Below are positions 3,990 through 57,355 of a stretch of DNA of 64,000 bases, one piece after another. Position 1 is the stretch's first letter; every line of letters starts with the position of its first letter. The notes below the pieces were generated by a model. It was not told the origin of the DNA, ran no database searches, and saw only the letters and a list, made by a program, of their open reading frames with translations. This DNA comes from a virus (Duplodnaviria; Caudoviricetes). The stretch lies in IMG/VR virus record IMGVR_UViG_3300006805_000023; one strand, given 5' to 3'. A program made the position numbers and the translations under genes.

Positions 3990-4261
3990 AAGACCGCCCC
4001 TTCTACTACGTTAACCGAGATGTTACCTTAGCCTCGACAGCCGAGTCGATCCTGGAGGATGCGCCCTCTGACGGGCTCGTGATCCGCAAGGACGAAAAGA
4101 TCAACATCCTCGACAGGAAGGAGCTGGAGGACGGCTTGGTCGCCAGGAAGGTCAGGGCCGAGAACCCGCCACGCCTAGGCTGGATGACCGCTGACCACAT
4201 CGACATCGGCGACCAGTGGCGTGACAGCCGCTACGACGGTCGTTACAACTCAGCCCTTTGA
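3986..4261 (+). CDS. Hypothetical protein (91 aa), possible SH3-like
   Basis: ATGA-coupled; LVIRKDEKINILD...LGWMTADHI is SH3-like. Confidence 0.65.
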   Translation: MKDRPFYYVNRDVTLASTAESILEDAPSDGLVIRKDEKINILDRKELEDGLVARKVRAENPPRLGWMTADHIDIGDQWRDSRYDGRYNSAL

Positions 4262-4501
4262 GGGGCCGAACATCGGCGGAAGCGGTTGCTCAGGCGCGAT
4301 CTTGTACCACCTTTCAAGGTCCAACTGAGCCCCTTCGCTCCAACGGACCTTGAGCTTACGAGCGTTGGCAACGACCGGCGTGGACACGATCTCAAGATCA
4401 ACGCTGGTGCTAGGATACCAGATAGCGTGTGTCTCTGGCTTGACGACTTTGGGAGCGAAGATGGCTCCGAACATGGTGGCGAGGAATCCGCGTCGTTTCA
4501 T
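4250..4501 (-). CDS. Twin-arginine-leader protein carrying a T4 gp23-type major capsid fragment (AxARKLKxxWS)
   Basis: MKRRGFLATMFGAIFAP leader; VDLEIVSTPVVANARKLKVRWSEGAQLDL resembles T4 gp23 FRIDKQVIEAKSRQLKAAYSIELAQDL. Confidence 0.75.
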   Translation of the reverse strand: MKRRGFLATMFGAIFAPKVVKPETHAIWYPSTSVDLEIVSTPVVANARKLKVRWSEGAQLDLERWYKIAPEQPLPPMFGPSKG

Positions 4502-4614
4502 TTGTCTTTGATGGTGTCCAGGATTGCGTTGATCTCGCAGATGCAGGTCGTGGCTCCACAGCGGCAGCGTGCTGGTGGGAGGAGCCAGTCGAAGAGGCGC
4601 TTTAGCAGTTTCAT
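4498..4614 (-). CDS. 38-aa Cys-rich microprotein (not in ORF track)
   Basis: Read manually: MKLLKRLFDWLLPPARCRCGATTCICEINAILDTIKDK; ATGA overlaps at both ends. Confidence 0.7.
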   Translation of the reverse strand: MKLLKRLFDWLLPPARCRCGATTCICEINAILDTIKDK

Positions 4615-4895
4615 AAAGTGATCTTCCAGCGTGATGGTGTGCTGGCTGTGCAGAAAGGGATCTCGACGCGCCTCCTAGGTGAGGACGTGCTGACGAAGTT
4701 CATGTGGAAGATCAGACCAGTCGGACCGTCCATCGGCTGGACCTTAACGAGTTCACTGGCGAGCAGGTCTGGGTGAATCCGTCGGATCAGCGCGATCGGG
4801 AACTCCAGGAGCTTTGGCTTCGGGGTGGACAGCCGGACGACTGCCGGAGCCAGGACGGCACCGAGCAGCGTAGTAAGGAAACCGCGTCTTCTCAT
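4611..4895 (-). CDS. Twin-arginine-leader protein carrying a T4 gp23-type capsid fragment (Gol-equivalent region)
   Basis: MRRRGFLTTLLGAVLAP leader (ATG 4895; TTG 4913 alternative); IALIRRIHPDLLASELVKVQPMDGPTGLIF resembles gp23 VMGMVRRAIPNLIAFDICGVQPMNSPTGQVF. Confidence 0.8.
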   Translation of the reverse strand: MRRRGFLTTLLGAVLAPAVVRLSTPKPKLLEFPIALIRRIHPDLLASELVKVQPMDGPTGLIFHMNFVSTSSPRRRVEIPFCTASTPSRWKITL

Positions 4896-4909: not shown

Positions 4910-5245
4910 TCAACCGAAGTTGTCTTCCAGGTAGGTTGAAAGACCAGCCCTAGCCTCGATGGCGTCCTCGTCCTGGGAGGCGATCGAGGCCGCTCCGTCG
5001 GCCCCGTAGCCCTTGCGCCGTGCGGTCCTGGAGGCAAAGCCCCACATCACGTCGCGCAGGTCCTGGGGAGTTGGGGCTAGGGCCAGCTTGCGGATGTCTC
5101 TTTGTGGCCACTGGCCCTCCTTGAAGTACTCGATAGCAGCCTTGCGCATCTTCTCGAAATCGGACTTCGTGTCCGTGGGCTGAGGAGCCGGGTCTTCTCC
5201 AGCCAGGAGGGTTTCAACGAGGGCGTCGGGTGTCTGTGGTCTCAT
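4910..5245 (-). CDS. Hypothetical protein, possible internal head protein
   Basis: N-terminal DALVETLLAGE; TAATTAT motif 9 nt upstream. Confidence 0.7.
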   Translation of the reverse strand: MRPQTPDALVETLLAGEDPAPQPTDTKSDFEKMRKAAIEYFKEGQWPQRDIRKLALAPTPQDLRDVMWGFASRTARRKGYGADGAASIASQDEDAIEARAGLSTYLEDNFG

Positions 5246-19594: not shown

Positions 19595-21259
19595 TCAGCG
19601 CTTGTGGTAAATGAAGCAAAGCTTCTCAGAGCCCCAGACTTTCCGGAGCAGATTCGTCTCCGCGTAGGCCGCCTCAGTGGTTGACATCTTTTGAGCCCTG
19701 CCCCAGACGGTGCGCTTGTGAACGACCCAGCCGAGCTGATCCACGTAGTAGTAGTCGGGAGCGACCGTGTGACTGAACCGGAAGTTGCTGGCCCGGTAGA
19801 GGCCGCCTGAGTGGCCCATCGTGGTGTCCGCGTAGGTCACAACGTCCTGACCGCTAAGCTTGAGACAACGCGACAAAAACCACGATCCAAGGTTCTTGAC
19901 CTGGTAGGCCGGGTCAAGCCAGAACCGCGTCAGCTCCACGGCGTCCTTGTATTTGAGGGTCTGCTCGTTGCGCTGGAACGGCCCAAACGAACACGCCCCG
20001 ATGACGGTTTCACCCGAGAACAGCCCAAGATGTTGTTTGCCACGGCTTGACCCCAGGTAATGACGCGAGTAAACGACCTGCGACTCCCGGAACGTGATCT
20101 CGCGAATCGCCAGAGCCTTGAAGTCAACTTCGTGCAACGCTGGCTTGTCAGCCAGGCCTAGCATCTCTTTGATCCGGTGCAGCACGCGCCCCTCGGTGTG
20201 GAACTCAAGCTCCCAGATCACTGCCAGCCTGACACCGGGGCAATAGCGCTCCACGTAGGTCGCCTTAGCCTTGTCACGCGGACCGGCGGCTGGCTTGCCA
20301 TGCCAGTACTCCCCGTGGCACTCGATCAAAAGGTTGTGGTCTGGAACCCAGACGTCGAAGTTCCAGGGTCCGATCGGATGCTCGGACGCCCACTTGATGC
20401 CAAGCGAATCCAGGATAGCAAACACTGCCTTGTTGAGAGATGACACCACTGGTTGGTTAGCGCGGGCCACAGCCATCTTGGCCTTGACAACCTCGCTCTG
20501 CATGGCGTCCCTGACGCTCTGCTTAAACTCTCCAGTAGCGCCAAGCTCGCGTGACTTCGCACAAAAACGCTCCACCCAGACAGGGTCGTCCCAGTAGGAC
20601 TGCAGCCGGTGCTGCAGCTCAGGATCGGCCATCGCTTCCAGGTGCCTGCGCCGAACCTCCGGGTTGTCCCAGTTGGCCTTCACAATGCCTGTCAGGCGCT
20701 CCCGGTACTCTGGGTTGGCCCAGCACTGCTGCGACATTGTGGACATAGCAGCCGCGTAGTCCGGGTCCTGCCAGCGCACCAGGGTGGCGGTGCGCAGCCG
20801 CTCGCGCAGGCTGATCGACCGCATCGCTAGCAAATGCCGGTCGCGCACCTCTGGGTTCGAGTACGACTCCTTGAGAGTCATAGCCATGTTGGCGCGGTAT
20901 ACCGGGTCTGCAGCACGCCTGCGGATCATGGTCAGCCAGCCCTCATCCTGTGACCGCTTTCTGATGGCGGCCCGCATCCGACCAGAAGTTTCTGGATCAG
21001 TCCAGGCCGCCTTGCTCTGCTGCGACAGGCGCTGGCGCTCTTCGGAAGTGGCTGGCACGCCCTTGTTATGTGGGACCACCCGTCCTTCAGCCTGTGCCTC
21101 CTTGAAACCGGCCTGCTGTTTCTCCCGATAGTCGGGTGACTTTATGACGCACTTAAAACAACGGGTCTCGCCCTTGCGCTTGCGGCGGGACACGGTCATG
21201 CGGTTCACGATCTCTATCGTTCCGCACGCCGAACATGTCACTGTGTAAACCTTAGCCAC
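19595..21259 (-). CDS. Homing-endonuclease-like fusion: Zn ribbon, WxDPExR helical repeats, Vsr/DUF559-type nuclease, Mom-like GNAT domain
   Basis: IGPWNFDVWVPDHNLLIECHGEYWHG; HYLG...ELTRFW...VVTYADTTMGHSGGLYRASNF. Confidence 0.8.
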   Translation of the reverse strand: MAKVYTVTCSACGTIEIVNRMTVSRRKRKGETRCFKCVIKSPDYREKQQAGFKEAQAEGRVVPHNKGVPATSEERQRLSQQSKAAWTDPETSGRMRAAIRKRSQDEGWLTMIRRRAADPVYRANMAMTLKESYSNPEVRDRHLLAMRSISLRERLRTATLVRWQDPDYAAAMSTMSQQCWANPEYRERLTGIVKANWDNPEVRRRHLEAMADPELQHRLQSYWDDPVWVERFCAKSRELGATGEFKQSVRDAMQSEVVKAKMAVARANQPVVSSLNKAVFAILDSLGIKWASEHPIGPWNFDVWVPDHNLLIECHGEYWHGKPAAGPRDKAKATYVERYCPGVRLAVIWELEFHTEGRVLHRIKEMLGLADKPALHEVDFKALAIREITFRESQVVYSRHYLGSSRGKQHLGLFSGETVIGACSFGPFQRNEQTLKYKDAVELTRFWLDPAYQVKNLGSWFLSRCLKLSGQDVVTYADTTMGHSGGLYRASNFRFSHTVAPDYYYVDQLGWVVHKRTVWGRAQKMSTTEAAYAETNLLRKVWGSEKLCFIYHKR

Positions 21260-47296: not shown

Positions 47297-47450
47297 TTTT
47301 ACAAGTTTAGTGCAGAGTGACCTGCGTTTGGTTTGTGTTTAACGAGTTGCCTCGTTCTCGAAACTCGTGGGGACGATACGCTCCCACGTGCCCGGATAAG
47401 GATGTTCCGCGCACCAACAGTGTCCGCGTTGGCGGTGTGGCCGCAAGAGC
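47297..47450 (-). ncRNA. Putative omega/reRNA overlapping the tnpB 3' end (5' boundary approximate)
   Basis: Hairpins at 47376-47398 and 47341-47356 (AACGAG-GCAA-CUCGUU); GGTCAC right-end-like motif ending at 47317. Confidence 0.55.
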
Positions 47451-48426
47451 CACACTGGAACTTCTCATTCGTCCGGTTGTCATTTGCTCGGTGACTGCAT
47501 TCAGGGCACGTCTGCGAGGTGTAGGCAGGGTTTACTCGGACAAACAGAACACAGTTCTCTCTGGCCTTTTGTTCAACCCTACCCAGCACAGAGGCATAGC
47601 GCCAAGGAGCAAGGAGTTTACGAAATTGTTTGCCGCGCTTGGGCTGCTTGCCTATCTTCAGGCCAGTCAGATCCTCGACCGCAACGGTTTTGAGAATACC
47701 CCAGGGAAGTTGGTTAACGCAGCGGTTCAGGTAACGATCCCGCGTGGTGCGAGCCCTACGCATCCCCTGGCCCCCTGGCTTCGCCATCCTGACGGCCTTG
47801 CCGATGGTCTTGAAGTCACGACCGATCAAGTTGCCGTCACTAGTTGCAAGAACAGTGCTGACCCCGCAATCCACGCCCAGCTCCGCACCCTCGGACCGCA
47901 GTGCGAGGTCCGGAATGTCAATCCAGAGGATGGCATACGCCCCTCTGTTTGTGAGACTAAGTTCGCAGCCTTTGGCAAGCACTGCCCCAGGCTTGCTCAA
48001 CCATTTATTAAGAACCTTCGTGGACTTCGCTGGGACGTTTATGCGGCAACCACTGCGCAGCGTGGAAACGCGCAGCCAGGTGTCGAACGCCTTGCTTGAC
48101 TTCCCGAAGGTGATGGAGACACACTTCTGGTTGACTTTGACACCGCGCTTGACCACAGGGCGGGTGGCCTTATTGACCGTGGCTCGTTGGGATTCCCGCG
48201 TCGCCTTGACTATTCCGAGCGCCTGTCGCAAAGCTGCAGCTCTGTAGTTGAACGGTAAGTGCCCGAGCGGCACAACGTCAGCAGTGGCCTTATCGAGACC
48301 GCCTTTGTTACCCCACAGAAACTTGATGTAACGGTTGCAGGCGCTCAAAAAACGCGACTCCACCGCCCGCAGCTTGCGCAGTTTGGACTCGGTGGCGTAA
48401 AGTTTGATTTTGACAGAGCGCGTCAT
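47299..48426 (-). CDS. tnpB: TnpB RNA-guided endonuclease (IS200/IS605 family), no TnpA nearby
   Basis: RuvC-I GVDCG, RuvC-II VEDL, NPAYTSQTCPEC, CGSC...NADTVGARNI. Confidence 0.93.
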   Translation of the reverse strand: MTRSVKIKLYATESKLRKLRAVESRFLSACNRYIKFLWGNKGGLDKATADVVPLGHLPFNYRAAALRQALGIVKATRESQRATVNKATRPVVKRGVKVNQKCVSITFGKSSKAFDTWLRVSTLRSGCRINVPAKSTKVLNKWLSKPGAVLAKGCELSLTNRGAYAILWIDIPDLALRSEGAELGVDCGVSTVLATSDGNLIGRDFKTIGKAVRMAKPGGQGMRRARTTRDRYLNRCVNQLPWGILKTVAVEDLTGLKIGKQPKRGKQFRKLLAPWRYASVLGRVEQKARENCVLFVRVNPAYTSQTCPECSHRANDNRTNEKFQCGSCGHTANADTVGARNILIRARGSVSSPRVSRTRQLVKHKPNAGHSALNL

Positions 48427-53926: not shown

Positions 53927-54548
53927 GGTCTGGGACAAGGTCTCACCTGAGACGCTCGCCTTCCTAGACTGTCACGAAACCATGGGACTACTGGAGCACG
54001 GCCAAGAGGCCGCTCTTGAGTTATGCGCCATGGACGCCCTGATCGAGGAGTTCGAGAGCCACATCAAGCGCAGCCCACGCCACGGGCGGGTCAGAGATAC
54101 ATGGCAGACTCTGAAAGAAGCAGTTCGTATTGGTAACGTTGGACCGCAGATCCTACTCAGGTTCTCACGCCGCACCAAAATCATGCTAGAACAAACCAGA
54201 AAAAACCGCTTCGAGGCTTCCCTGATGGAGTCGCTCCTCAACATGGGAGACCTCAGCGCCCTCGCCCCTGAAAGACTTCAGGACTTGGAGCCACACCAGG
54301 CTTTCCTACGCGAGATGGGCCGCACCTTCAAGTGTCGCAGCGGCGATCTGGCCGAATCGGTGTCGAGTGGCCTCCACGTTTACCTCGATGAAGCCGACAC
54401 CAAGAAGCTGCTGGAGCAACGCGCCATGATGCTTGAGCAGTTTGCTCTGAAGCACGGCTATCACTGCGTGCGCCGTGGCAGCATGTCGGACATCAGTCAC
54501 GGACACTCCAGCCAGCGGGTATCACGCTGGACCTTCATCAAGATATGA
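53850..54548 (+). CDS. Hypothetical protein (start uncertain: 53868 or 53982)
   Basis: ORF ATGA-coupled to the next gene. Confidence 0.7.
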   Translation: MVASQSMSASPIQPQDQTAPLSFTREVWDKVSPETLAFLDCHETMGLLEHGQEAALELCAMDALIEEFESHIKRSPRHGRVRDTWQTLKEAVRIGNVGPQILLRFSRRTKIMLEQTRKNRFEASLMESLLNMGDLSALAPERLQDLEPHQAFLREMGRTFKCRSGDLAESVSSGLHVYLDEADTKKLLEQRAMMLEQFALKHGYHCVRRGSMSDISHGHSSQRVSRWTFIKI

Positions 54549-57355
54549 GCGCGGCCTTGCTGCTACAGAAACACCGCCGGAGGCGCAAAGCGTCTTCCGT
54601 ACCCAAGCCTTGCCCAGAAGAAGGCCAAGAGCCAGACAACCTGACCGAGTCCTCGGCATGGGTGGCAAACGTCCTAATCCCGGACGCTGGCAAGCTGATC
54701 CTGCTGCCGGTCCTCGACACTTATCAATCAAATGGGGTCGCGTTTCACGCCAACTCCCCAGGAGGCAGGATGCTGCCGATCTATTCAGTCCTTGCCAATC
54801 GCGCAGTCCTCCAGAAACACTTCCCCTGGCTCGGTCGCGAGATCAACCGGCTGAAACAAGAGGACCTCGTGGACGAGTCTGAAATGTCGATGGTGCAGAA
54901 ACGGGTGTTCGAGCGCAGCGGGTTCGGATTCTGGATCGTTAAGGGCCAGCGCGGCTACTTCTATGGCAACCCGTTGGTGCATAAGCTGTTCATGCGCGAC
55001 GTCACAACCGAAGAACTGCGCAAGCTGTCTCACATCTTCAAAGCAACGGCTGCCGGACTTCCGCAGGAGGTAGTGTCCATTGAGGACTTCACAGGCCAGG
55101 ACGACCTGTCCTTGAAGGGACTGGTCAACTCAGGCAGGCACGCCACCCCGAATGAGGTGGCGTTTTTGATCTACGACCAAGGAGACTTGGAAGGAGTCAA
55201 CCCAAAACAGCTGGCTGACCTGCTGGATTACCCAGCGGTCACTGATAGCCTTAGGCACCTCCAGGGGCCGTCACAACTCAAGTTTGCTCACAACGTCGTG
55301 CTGGCGCTCAAGTACTCTATGAGCAAAGGGGTGGAGGTGGAGATCGACAAATACCCGCCTTACATCGCAATGGCACTCCGCAAGGTCGGCGAGAGCCTGG
55401 AAGAGGCCTCCTTCAGCAAGCTGCTTGGCCTGACCCAGTCCAATGGTGGCTACCGTTACGGCGGTATGCGCAAGGTAAACGACCGGTGGGTGATCGACCC
55501 CGCCATCAACGGACGTCTTGACAACAGCCGTTTCATCGTGACCTCGATGCCATCCTGGAGGCTCGGTCAAGACGGGTTTCCTGTGATGCCCTACGTCTGC
55601 AAATCGGCTCCAGAGCGCAGCACCACTGGCATGAAGCAGGTTGGGTTCGTGCGCGTCACTAACCAAGGCGGGTTTTTGCGCAAGCTCGCTGGTAAACTCA
55701 TTCCGCAGATCCGGGCGGCAGAGCCCGACGTTCAGGTGTTCTGCAGCTGTCTGTCGGCGGAGTCAGTTGTATTGATGAGCGACGGCACCTATCGCCCAAT
55801 CGCTGAGGTCAGGGTGGGGGACAACGTGATCACCCACAAGGGACGCTCACGCAGAGTCACCAAGGTGGCAGCCCGTCAGGTCAGGCCAGACGAGAACGTG
55901 TATCGCGTAAAGGTACAAGGCTTCCCATTTGAAATGACTGTGACCGGCAACCACCCGTTCTACACGCTCCGAGGTAACGACAAGTGCCTGTGCGGCTGCG
56001 GGCAGCTCCTACAGCGTCCAAAGCGCAGTGCCTGGTCGCCGGAACTGCTCCTAGGGCGTCGTTTCATTCAGGGCCATGGTGCACGCCCAGCAGTTGAGCA
56101 GGACCACTCAACTGGCAGGTTCTCGTGGATTGACGTGGATAACCTTGAGCCAAACGAATGGTTCCTCTCCCCATGGCAGCAGTCCGGGTGCGCCAGCATG
56201 AGCAGGAGTCTGGCAAGGCTGTTGGGATATTACGCGGCGGAAGGCTCCGTTGCAACCAGAGGGACGACGGTTAGCTTCACTCTCAACATGAACGAGTGGG
56301 ATACCATCGGCAACGATGTGTTGAGGCTCTGCCACAATCTCGGCCTTAAGGCGCGCAGGAAGCAGTCAGGCGACCACAACTGGTTCAACGTTTACGTCTC
56401 AGACAAGAAATTCCGCGACCAGTGCGTGTCCCTGGCGGGCACCGGGTCCCGCACCAAGAAATTGGCTAGCAGCTTGATGGACCTCCACCATGAATCACTC
56501 GTAGAACTGCTCCTAGGCATGTTACTAGGAGATGGCACAGTCGGTGGTGTGAGTGGTGGAAAACGTCAGGGACGAGTCAGGTACCACTCAACCAGCAGAG
56601 ATCTTGCCAGCCAGGCCCAGACCATCATGAGCAGGCTCGGACTGCGAAGCTCCCTGTCCTTCTCCAGGAAGGCCACGAAGCCAAGGCAGGCACGCAGCAA
56701 GCGCGAGGGCAAAGTGGTTACCCTTAACCAGTCGGCTTGTTGGCAGGTCACTCCTGACCCAACGGCCTGTTCATCCCTGCGTCGCCTGATGCGCTCAGTA
56801 ACGGGCGGTAAGGACTCCATGCCGGACAACCCCGCAGCACAGCGCAGCGTTAAATTCGTCCCGAAGGAGGGACAACTGCGTGCTATGCTCAAACGCGAGA
56901 AGGTTGACTTTGACGGACTCGTTTACGACTTGACTGTCGAGGAGGACGAGTCGTTTGTGGCGCATGGGGTCGCGGTTCATAACTGTCCCGACTTCAAGTA
57001 TCGGTACCACTGGGTGCTGTCCCAAATGGGCGCAGCCGCGAAGCCGTCCGGAGCCGGTGGAGAGGCCACCAATGCCCCTCCCAACAAGACCAACCCGTCA
57101 TTCAGGCCATCGCTGTGCAAGCATCTGGCAGCCTGTGACCAGTTTATCGACTTTGGCAACGCCGACTTCAGGAAGATGCTGCGCAAGGTCGGTAACTCGC
57201 CGGTCCAGACTACACAGCCAAAGCGCGATCCGGTGATTCGCCGGAACGCGCCAGTCAGAGCAGCCCCGACACCACCAAAAAACGGCGATCCGAAGCCTGC
57301 TGATCAAGGTGTTACTCCTCCAGAAGCTGCTTCGGTGTCACCCCGCCTTGCCTGA
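54545..57355 (+). CDS. SWIM zinc-finger protein interrupted by an intein
   Basis: Spliced product reads VFCS-CPDFKYR...SLCKH (CxC...CxH). Confidence 0.85.
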   Translation: MSAALLLQKHRRRRKASSVPKPCPEEGQEPDNLTESSAWVANVLIPDAGKLILLPVLDTYQSNGVAFHANSPGGRMLPIYSVLANRAVLQKHFPWLGREINRLKQEDLVDESEMSMVQKRVFERSGFGFWIVKGQRGYFYGNPLVHKLFMRDVTTEELRKLSHIFKATAAGLPQEVVSIEDFTGQDDLSLKGLVNSGRHATPNEVAFLIYDQGDLEGVNPKQLADLLDYPAVTDSLRHLQGPSQLKFAHNVVLALKYSMSKGVEVEIDKYPPYIAMALRKVGESLEEASFSKLLGLTQSNGGYRYGGMRKVNDRWVIDPAINGRLDNSRFIVTSMPSWRLGQDGFPVMPYVCKSAPERSTTGMKQVGFVRVTNQGGFLRKLAGKLIPQIRAAEPDVQVFCSCLSAESVVLMSDGTYRPIAEVRVGDNVITHKGRSRRVTKVAARQVRPDENVYRVKVQGFPFEMTVTGNHPFYTLRGNDKCLCGCGQLLQRPKRSAWSPELLLGRRFIQGHGARPAVEQDHSTGRFSWIDVDNLEPNEWFLSPWQQSGCASMSRSLARLLGYYAAEGSVATRGTTVSFTLNMNEWDTIGNDVLRLCHNLGLKARRKQSGDHNWFNVYVSDKKFRDQCVSLAGTGSRTKKLASSLMDLHHESLVELLLGMLLGDGTVGGVSGGKRQGRVRYHSTSRDLASQAQTIMSRLGLRSSLSFSRKATKPRQARSKREGKVVTLNQSACWQVTPDPTACSSLRRLMRSVTGGKDSMPDNPAAQRSVKFVPKEGQLRAMLKREKVDFDGLVYDLTVEEDESFVAHGVAVHNCPDFKYRYHWVLSQMGAAAKPSGAGGEATNAPPNKTNPSFRPSLCKHLAACDQFIDFGNADFRKMLRKVGNSPVQTTQPKRDPVIRRNAPVRAAPTPPKNGDPKPADQGVTPPEAASVSPRLA
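55748..56983 (+). mobile_element. Intein (412 aa) with LAGLIDADG endonuclease
   Basis: Starts CLSAESVVLMSDG, ends VYDLTVEEDESFVAHGVAVHN, +1 Cys; LLGYYAAEG and LLGMLLGDG. Confidence 0.93.

Follow-up and report, generated by a model that had tools for sequence, protein, structure and literature searches.

The window is the whole stretch of DNA analyzed here, 64,000 nucleotides from a large, uncultured, T4-like phage. It carries genes for a baseplate hub, a tail fibre, a primase, a helicase and an SbcD-like protein, and a tail sheath gene lies just past its end. Its sequence recurs on contigs of 218 kb, about 186 kb and 49 kb. Comparison of the window DNA with 50,697 cultured phage records gave no match, and none of the best 120 relatives of the capsid protein P0065, which comes from another phage, was from the 218-kb contig.

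Gene layout and close relatives

A block of seven small minus-strand genes runs from 6151 down to 4250. Inside the block lies P0001, a 94-aa ORF with an ATG start, followed downstream by a second gene with a similar leader. The features of this region are listed below in window coordinates.

4910..5245, minus strand: 111-aa gene upstream of P0001, in the same small-gene block
4611..4895, minus strand: P0001 gene; the stop codon is at 4611-4613 and the family alignment begins at the same ATG
4833..4895, minus strand: Tat-type leader, P0001 residues 1-21 (MRRRGFLTTLLGAVLAPAVVR), an RR motif plus an uncharged stretch
4803..4832, minus strand: Pro/Lys-rich linker, P0001 residues 22-31, whose length and sequence vary across the family
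4695..4802, minus strand: Gol-equivalent capsid segment, P0001 residues 32-67, with Pfam, PHROG, tblastn and profile matches
4614..4694, minus strand: C-terminal tail, P0001 residues 68-94, without conservation in the family and modeled by AF2 as low-confidence coil
4498..4614, minus strand: P0003, a 38-aa Cys-rich ORF with ATGA overlaps with the P0001 and P0002 genes
4250..4501, minus strand: P0002, an 83-aa paralog gene that pairs a leader as in P0001 with a segment weakly similar to a later capsid region
4307..4408, minus strand: P0002 residues 32-65, which resemble, by a weak Gp23 match, the return strand of the E-loop and the first part of the spine helix

The P0002 gene lies 110 nt downstream of P0001. 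The two leaders are identical at 14 of 24 residues (E 8e-9), and both proteins start with M-[RK]-R-R-G-F-L followed by 13-16 uncharged residues. Residues 32-65 of P0002 align with positions 132-165 of Pfam Gp23 at E 0.05, under the cut-off, and with positions 182-212 of our own capsid HMM at E 1.2e-3 in a 17-sequence search and at 0.81 in a six-frame search. The capsid match of P0002 is thus not significant alone and is suggestive only. The P0001 and P0002 fragments are colinear with the capsid protein.

P0003, which contains the motif CRCGATTCIC, is absent in relatives from two sequencing runs. These have about 10 nt in its place, and the flanking genes are 2-3 nt apart. This pattern suggests that P0003 was inserted recently or is a micro-gene confined to this lineage. 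The Zn-ribbon neighbors of P0001 and of P0005, another small family member, were compared as possible homologs and found not to be homologous. Scans for promoters and terminators contributed no useful signal.

Close relatives of the locus were used to examine constraint on P0001. An 86.6-kb wastewater contig is syntenic with the region at less than 90% identity, and its P0001 homolog is equally long. The contig lacks P0003, leaving its leader genes 2-3 nt apart, and the same joint (4501->4618) was found in a second run. A third variant, on a 270-nt contig of low depth, has 28 substitutions and, in addition, three insertions of one base each, which total one codon and leave the frame open. With 23 differences listed, the 17 single changes outside the indel zone comprise 8 synonymous and 9 non-synonymous ones. 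The residues altered in this variant include R39, the second Arg of the RR in the Gol-like segment, and the near-invariant P42; these changes may reflect sequencing error or relaxed constraint. This rough count, from a contig that may contain errors, points to constraint on the P0001 ORF that is present and only moderate.

Elsewhere, a 76.6-kb wastewater contig matches only the 36-nt VQPM-GPTG core at 4707-4742 (4 differences), with unrelated flanks. The match is probably another Gol-bearing gene, for a capsid or a mini-protein, of a related phage.

The window also contains genes of a different character. A 936-aa ORF at 54545-57355 (plus strand) has an intein-like insert, with Hint and LAGLIDADG matches on the gene call from one of the related contigs (L003). 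A strain 97% identical to the window (L004) lacks window positions 55750-56982 and has a 524-aa gene in place of the 936-aa ORF. On the minus strand, a 554-aa protein at 19595-21259 has HNH/homing-endonuclease and Mom-like matches, and a 375-aa protein at 47299-48426 has transposase-family PHROG matches. The last two look like mobile or DNA-modification genes within the phage genome.

The Gol-equivalent segment and the twin-arginine leader

The Gol segment of the T4 major capsid protein gp23 is a classic capsid trigger of defence. The protease that it activates through EF-Tu, Lit of e14, cuts EF-Tu at Gly59-Ile60, and EF-Tu and Lit both act in the cytoplasm. Gol is a 29-residue stretch of gp23 that binds EF-Tu domains II-III and enables cleavage of EF-Tu by Lit (PMC3014915). 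No other part of gp23 is as conserved among T4-like phages, and the peptide alone binds EF-Tu-GDP and inhibits its GTPase (PMC3014915). The same paper cites a proposal that EF-Tu binding is common to gp23 from all T4-like phages (PMC3014915).

Residues 32-67 of P0001 (FPIALIRRIHPDLLASELVKVQPMDGPTGLIFHMNF) are encoded by exactly positions 4695-4802, the segment that the original prediction had named as a Gol equivalent, and several searches bear this out. Pfam PF07068 (Gp23) aligns its positions 9-47 with P0001 residues 34-72 at E 5.1e-9; the score, 36.5 bits, is above the curated cut-off of 24.4. PHROG 138, "major head protein", matches with E 9.5e-9, and in 863 cultured phages the major capsid gene was matched by tblastn with P0001. 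A profile built from the small proteins of the family aligns with residues 88-134 of the T4 gp23 chains (5vf3, 6uzc) at E 7e-14. P0001 residues 32-67 align with gp23 residues ~94-129, which include the entire 29-residue Gol region. Within it, A94-G122 of T4 gp23 aligns with F32-G60 of P0001 and 12 of the 29 residues are identical (RR, P, L, A, VQPM, P, T, G). By these scores the homology between P0001 and the Gol region of gp23 is far above chance.

In gp23-type capsid proteins this segment forms the N-arm helix and the first E-loop strand. A full HK97-type subunit has an N-arm, an E-loop and P- and A-domains in about 400-520 aa. P0001 falls short of that, covering positions 9-47 of 376 in PF07068 and positions 72-112 of 438 in our own capsid HMM, which was built from 101 T4-type capsid proteins. 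The AF2 monomer of P0001 has a helix at residues 3-21, short helices at 33-40 and 42-52, and coil in the remainder (pLDDT 70, pTM 0.25). The two short helices resemble the capsid N-arm. The predicted structure fits a peptide that would fold only upon its partner. The ESM Atlas gave no usable lead for P0001. When residues 28-75 of P0001 were co-folded with EF-Tu of E. coli, the score was 0.00 and the partner itself was poorly folded, which makes the result evidence neither for nor against binding.

The N-terminus of P0001, M-R-R-R-G-F-L-T, follows the twin-arginine motif (S/T)-R-R-x-F-L-K, with T where the Tat motif has K. The 16 uncharged residues after RRR, with a mean Kyte-Doolittle value of 1.87, lie within the length of an h-region (~12-20 residues). 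P0001 itself did not match the Tat-signal models PF10518 and TIGR01409 at E<=1; these models from Pfam and NCBIfam, which are very short, match 5 of 32 aligned family members at E<=0.1. A leader of the form M-x-R-R-x-F-[FL]-K-T plus ~15 uncharged residues was found in 41 proteins, including P0001 and P0002. The RR is invariant in these proteins, F occupies +3 in 33/41, F, L or I occupies +4 in 41/41, and K occupies +5 in 22/41. Their uncharged stretch is moderately hydrophobic, with a median length of 15 residues, and the distance from RR to QPM is near-constant (median 56 residues). Judged by its residues, the family leader is a textbook Tat pattern, and its hydrophobic stretch has a length typical of signal peptides, below that needed for a stable membrane anchor. 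It was also considered whether the leader is the capsid protein's own GFLTE protease-site region. This idea was dropped, as the match spans only 5-6 residues and the Tat pattern occurs in 41 proteins.

A DNA-level scan of IMG/VR for the leader (L090-L164) recovered ~40 distinct small phage ORFs of 57-210 aa that start with MNRRxF[FL]KT and have unrelated C-termini. Pfam TAT_signal matches 24/40 of these, and one of the ORFs weakly matches another capsid family (GP7, E 0.0018). Mini-proteins with a Tat leader seem to form a broad and functionally unannotated class among phage genes.

The family of small proteins and its cassettes

An exhaustive HMMER search of 1.84 billion cluster representatives gave 98 matches at E<=1e-3, nearly all of 48-170 aa. 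The RR leader is present in 39 of the 97 matches other than P0001. About 80 small proteins carry the same Gol-type module. Alignment A1, which holds 32 sequences from residue 1 through the Gol-like block, is matched by Pfam Gp23 in 32/32. The positions conserved in capsid proteins are conserved in the 80 small proteins as well: in the numbering of our own HMM, P82 (98%), P94 (100%), P98 (100%), Q93 (92%) and V92 (91%). Their conserved core, RR..P.L.A.....VQPM.GP.G..F, coincides with the Gol peptide, and conservation ends a few residues past the Gol region. Only conserved capsid motifs are detectable by such searches, so the appearance of a "most conserved epitope" is partly an effect of detection.

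The module does not always follow a leader. Leaderless variants also occur among the small proteins, and one leaderless subfamily (P0028, P0046, P0070, P0073, P0096) has a conserved C-terminal motif, W-x-[KQ]-E-G-F, which might be a different targeting or adaptor tag. In some small proteins the C-terminal strand of the capsid protein, Y-[CA]-P-Y-[IV]-P-L, is fused directly before the module.

Other searches recovered capsid genes or nothing. Word-index searches with P0001 and P0002 returned only the queries themselves, and P0001 had no match in scans of IMG/VR and JGI. A scan of IMG/VR with the family alignment found full-length capsid genes only. A scan of GTDB for VQPMxGPTG found capsid genes or chance matches and no small members. 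In cultured phages, tblastn with three family members found one place per record and no second Gol-like copy, and wherever the listed rows had annotation that place was an annotated capsid or vertex gene. The one match annotated "hypothetical", RsoM2USA_383, proved to be an ordinary 411-aa capsid protein. Leader-only queries found nothing in cultured phages.

The origin of the module was examined with a tree of 41 columns. A test on this tree rejected monophyly for the small proteins (p-AU 0.007), but only 2 branches were well supported; so poorly resolved a tree cannot separate one origin from several.

Leader genes with different capsid pieces recur together as cassettes in unrelated T4-like contigs. 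Further leader genes of this kind were found in the window (P0002, with its weak match) and on two other contigs, L165 and L167. L165 is T4-like, with gp59, gp32, gp53, gp2 and gp5-type genes. On it, the gene for P0029, a leader-plus-Gol protein, overlaps an 86-aa ORF that bears a second RR leader and weakly matches the spine-helix region (HMM positions 220-248). L167 is an 11.9-kb freshwater contig with three RR-leader genes within 3.5 kb, all derived from a T4-type capsid protein:

L167:6796-7443, plus strand: 216-aa mini capsid protein with several motifs
L167:9517-9921, plus strand: leader plus C-terminal strand (HMM 361-392, E 1.5e-4)
L167:10001-10321, plus strand: Gol-type protein P0011

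In a third contig, L166, an upstream ORF contains YCPYIPLQ and has no leader. Fused forms also occur, namely P0023, P0085, P0016 and P0080. No partner leader gene was seen in the contexts of P0005 (L006) and P0007 (L008). Besides Gol, leaders precede pieces from the E-loop return strand, the spine helix or the C-terminal strand, and in one case a whole mini-capsid protein.

The mini-proteins are found in variable islands of small genes, together with a T7 gp5.9-like gene, ADP-ribosyl glycohydrolases, SIR2 and glycosyltransferases. These variable neighborhoods, and the lack of a second Gol-like place in the cultured records, mark the mini-proteins as accessory in character. We defined the class by an RR leader, a capsid-homologous segment within ~30-60 residues and a length below ~220 aa, and P0001 has all three. 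The comparisons give good support to the view that P0001 belongs to a class of widespread small accessory phage proteins, each predicted to consist of a Tat-type signal peptide, a short linker and a piece of the T4-type major capsid protein copied long ago. No description of leader-plus-capsid-piece genes was found in open-access papers and preprints.

Proposed function and comparison with known systems

Capsid proteins rank among the chief triggers of immunity in bacteria. Several defence families sense them (bioRxiv 10.64898/2026.01.04.697583). We favor, tentatively, a reading in which the mini-protein mimics the capsid, draws off capsid-sensing host factors as a decoy or sink, and is directed to the membrane or the Tat machinery; even this reading is more doubtful than secure. 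It starts from four observations, which are the homology, the leader, the conservation across the family and the arrangement in cassettes. From these we infer export, binding, the identity of the partner and the benefit to the phage. The capsid piece would mimic unassembled capsid protein and would bind a partner that normally recognizes that capsid surface. By way of its leader the mini-protein, possibly with the bound partner, would then leave the cytoplasm for the inner membrane or the Tat translocase. Conflict would be the most likely purpose, with host factors that sense capsid protein diverted by the decoy or sink. An export signal is odd for a decoy of cytoplasmic sensors, which speaks against this reading, and a step of hitchhiking or sequestration is purely conjectural. 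A stricter version of it is improbable: the module would capture a capsid-sensing receptor or the Lit-targeted EF-Tu complex, and the leader would drag the whole complex to or through Tat. If true, it would be an export-based anti-defence mechanism that removes the sensor from the cytoplasm, and it would also account for Gol being the most conserved part of T4-type capsid proteins.

The original prediction pointed to EF-Tu and Lit as possible targets. It regarded the segment as isolated and left the N-terminal leader unweighed; the segment in fact lies behind a twin-arginine leader, with a paralogous gene nearby and ~80 small relatives. What holds of it is that the phage encodes a conserved version of the gp23 Gol segment that stands on its own. 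The mechanism specific to Lit or EF-Tu does not hold up as well, because Gol is one of several leader-borne capsid pieces, which favors a general capsid mimic, and because the leader points out of the cytoplasm. The common denominator of these genes appears to be a capsid-protein surface on a Tat-type leader and not Gol, Lit or EF-Tu specifically. It is therefore improbable, about as much so as capture of a whole complex, that the module binds EF-Tu domains II-III like T4 Gol and in this way modulates translation, or blocks a Lit-type protease or acts ahead of it. The coincidence of the conserved core with the 29-residue Gol region, the binding of EF-Tu-GDP by Gol alone (PMC3014915) and the existence of leaderless subfamilies argue for such a role. 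Yet the same leader is found on capsid pieces without a known link to EF-Tu, and EF-Tu is far too abundant to be titrated. The original prediction had also suggested a non-activating competitor, but a free Gol-like peptide is expected to activate Lit and not to inhibit it (PMC3014915).

Interference with capsid assembly is an unlikely explanation, although the strongest of the rivals. The pieces would dock on capsid subunits, either those of a co-infecting or superinfecting T4-like phage or the phage's own, and cap or misdirect their assembly, in the way that tails are blocked by Tab and Tai and capsids remodeled by satellite proteins. They match elements of inter-subunit contact (the N-arm, E-loop strands, the spine helix and the C-terminal P-domain strand). 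With the exception of the one whole mini capsid, all map to the N-arm, the E-loop base or the P-domain (HMM 64-112, 182-212, 220-248, 361-392), and several complementary pieces are co-encoded and translationally coupled. Assembly blockers are moreover a known category (PMC10884400, PMC11364771). Docking on the phage's own subunits would make the pieces regulators. In either case the leader would hold them at the membrane, where T4-type proheads start. But pieces that fit the phage's own capsid protein too would have to avoid self-poisoning, the export signal would take the protein out of the compartment where heads are assembled, and the neighborhoods in other phages look early or accessory.

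Somewhat less likely again is a true periplasmic or envelope protein, in which a working Tat signal exports a capsid piece re-used for a job unrelated to its role in the capsid, such as superinfection exclusion, lysis timing or envelope remodeling. The canonical leader across the family fits this explanation, as do the ~40 other IMG/VR ORFs with the same leader and their TAT_signal matches. It is countered by the conserved residues, which are the same as in capsid proteins and suggest that the original binding or folding role was retained and not re-purposed; in addition, little structure is predicted for the mature part, which would be a poor Tat substrate alone. That the genes are non-functional remnants of capsid gene duplication or recombination, left open by chance, is very improbable. 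The short ORF, the unconserved tail, the moderate constraint among close variants and the low model confidence would be expected of remnants, but ~80 diverged small homologs exist, 41 proteins share the leader at a near-constant distance from QPM, the frame is preserved across indels, and the genes are translationally coupled.

Gol of T4 gp23 is, to our knowledge, the oldest known capsid trigger, and we know of no work that has settled the reason for its conservation and EF-Tu binding. The present family is a natural, minimal and free-standing Gol segment, and its sister genes are the same for other capsid pieces. What is new is a subclass whose passenger is precisely Gol, the segment that binds EF-Tu in T4, with ~80 diverged members. 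The family is widespread in uncultured T4-like phages, and its module is often joined to an export-type leader. If the mini-proteins were decoys or assembly poisons, they would be a new class of phage conflict protein that is easily tested with peptides of ~45-70 residues; if they bound EF-Tu, the old Gol question could be tested outside T4. Even without a function assigned, they mark capsid surfaces that selection treats as stand-alone modules.

P0001 shares with the Gol region of T4 gp23 a homologous segment with the same invariant residues, and like the Gol peptide it stands without the remaining capsid fold. It differs in being a natural separate gene, not part of gp23 or a laboratory construct, and in the twin-arginine leader in front. 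Its EF-Tu binding and its effect on Lit are putative only, and other capsid segments are treated alike in the same phages. With gp23 and gp24 as whole proteins (PF07068, HK97 fold) there is a significant match, and the P0001 and P0002 fragments keep the capsid order. At 94 aa against 400-520 and without an A-domain, P0001 cannot form a capsid subunit.

The leaders share R-R-x-F-[FL]-K, a moderately hydrophobic stretch of ~15 residues and a Pro-/basic-rich c-region with bacterial Tat signal peptides (PF10518, TIGR01409). Unlike those, they are encoded by phages and precede a short passenger (~50-70 residues) for which a mostly unfolded state is predicted. The mini-proteins often lack a clear AxA cleavage site (AAP), and their export is predicted only. 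Uncleaved Tat anchors exist, for example in the Rieske protein.

Tab (PMC10884400) and Tai (PMC11364771) block virion assembly, and the satellite proteins CpmB and Sid remodel it. All of them are small accessory proteins of mobile elements that act on the structural proteins of another phage, a possible functional analogy to the mini-proteins. There is no sequence relation to Tab, Tai, CpmB or Sid, which are not fragments of their targets and have no export signal. These four target tails or scaffold sites, whereas the mini-proteins, known from sequence alone, carry pieces of the capsid protein itself behind a Tat-type leader.
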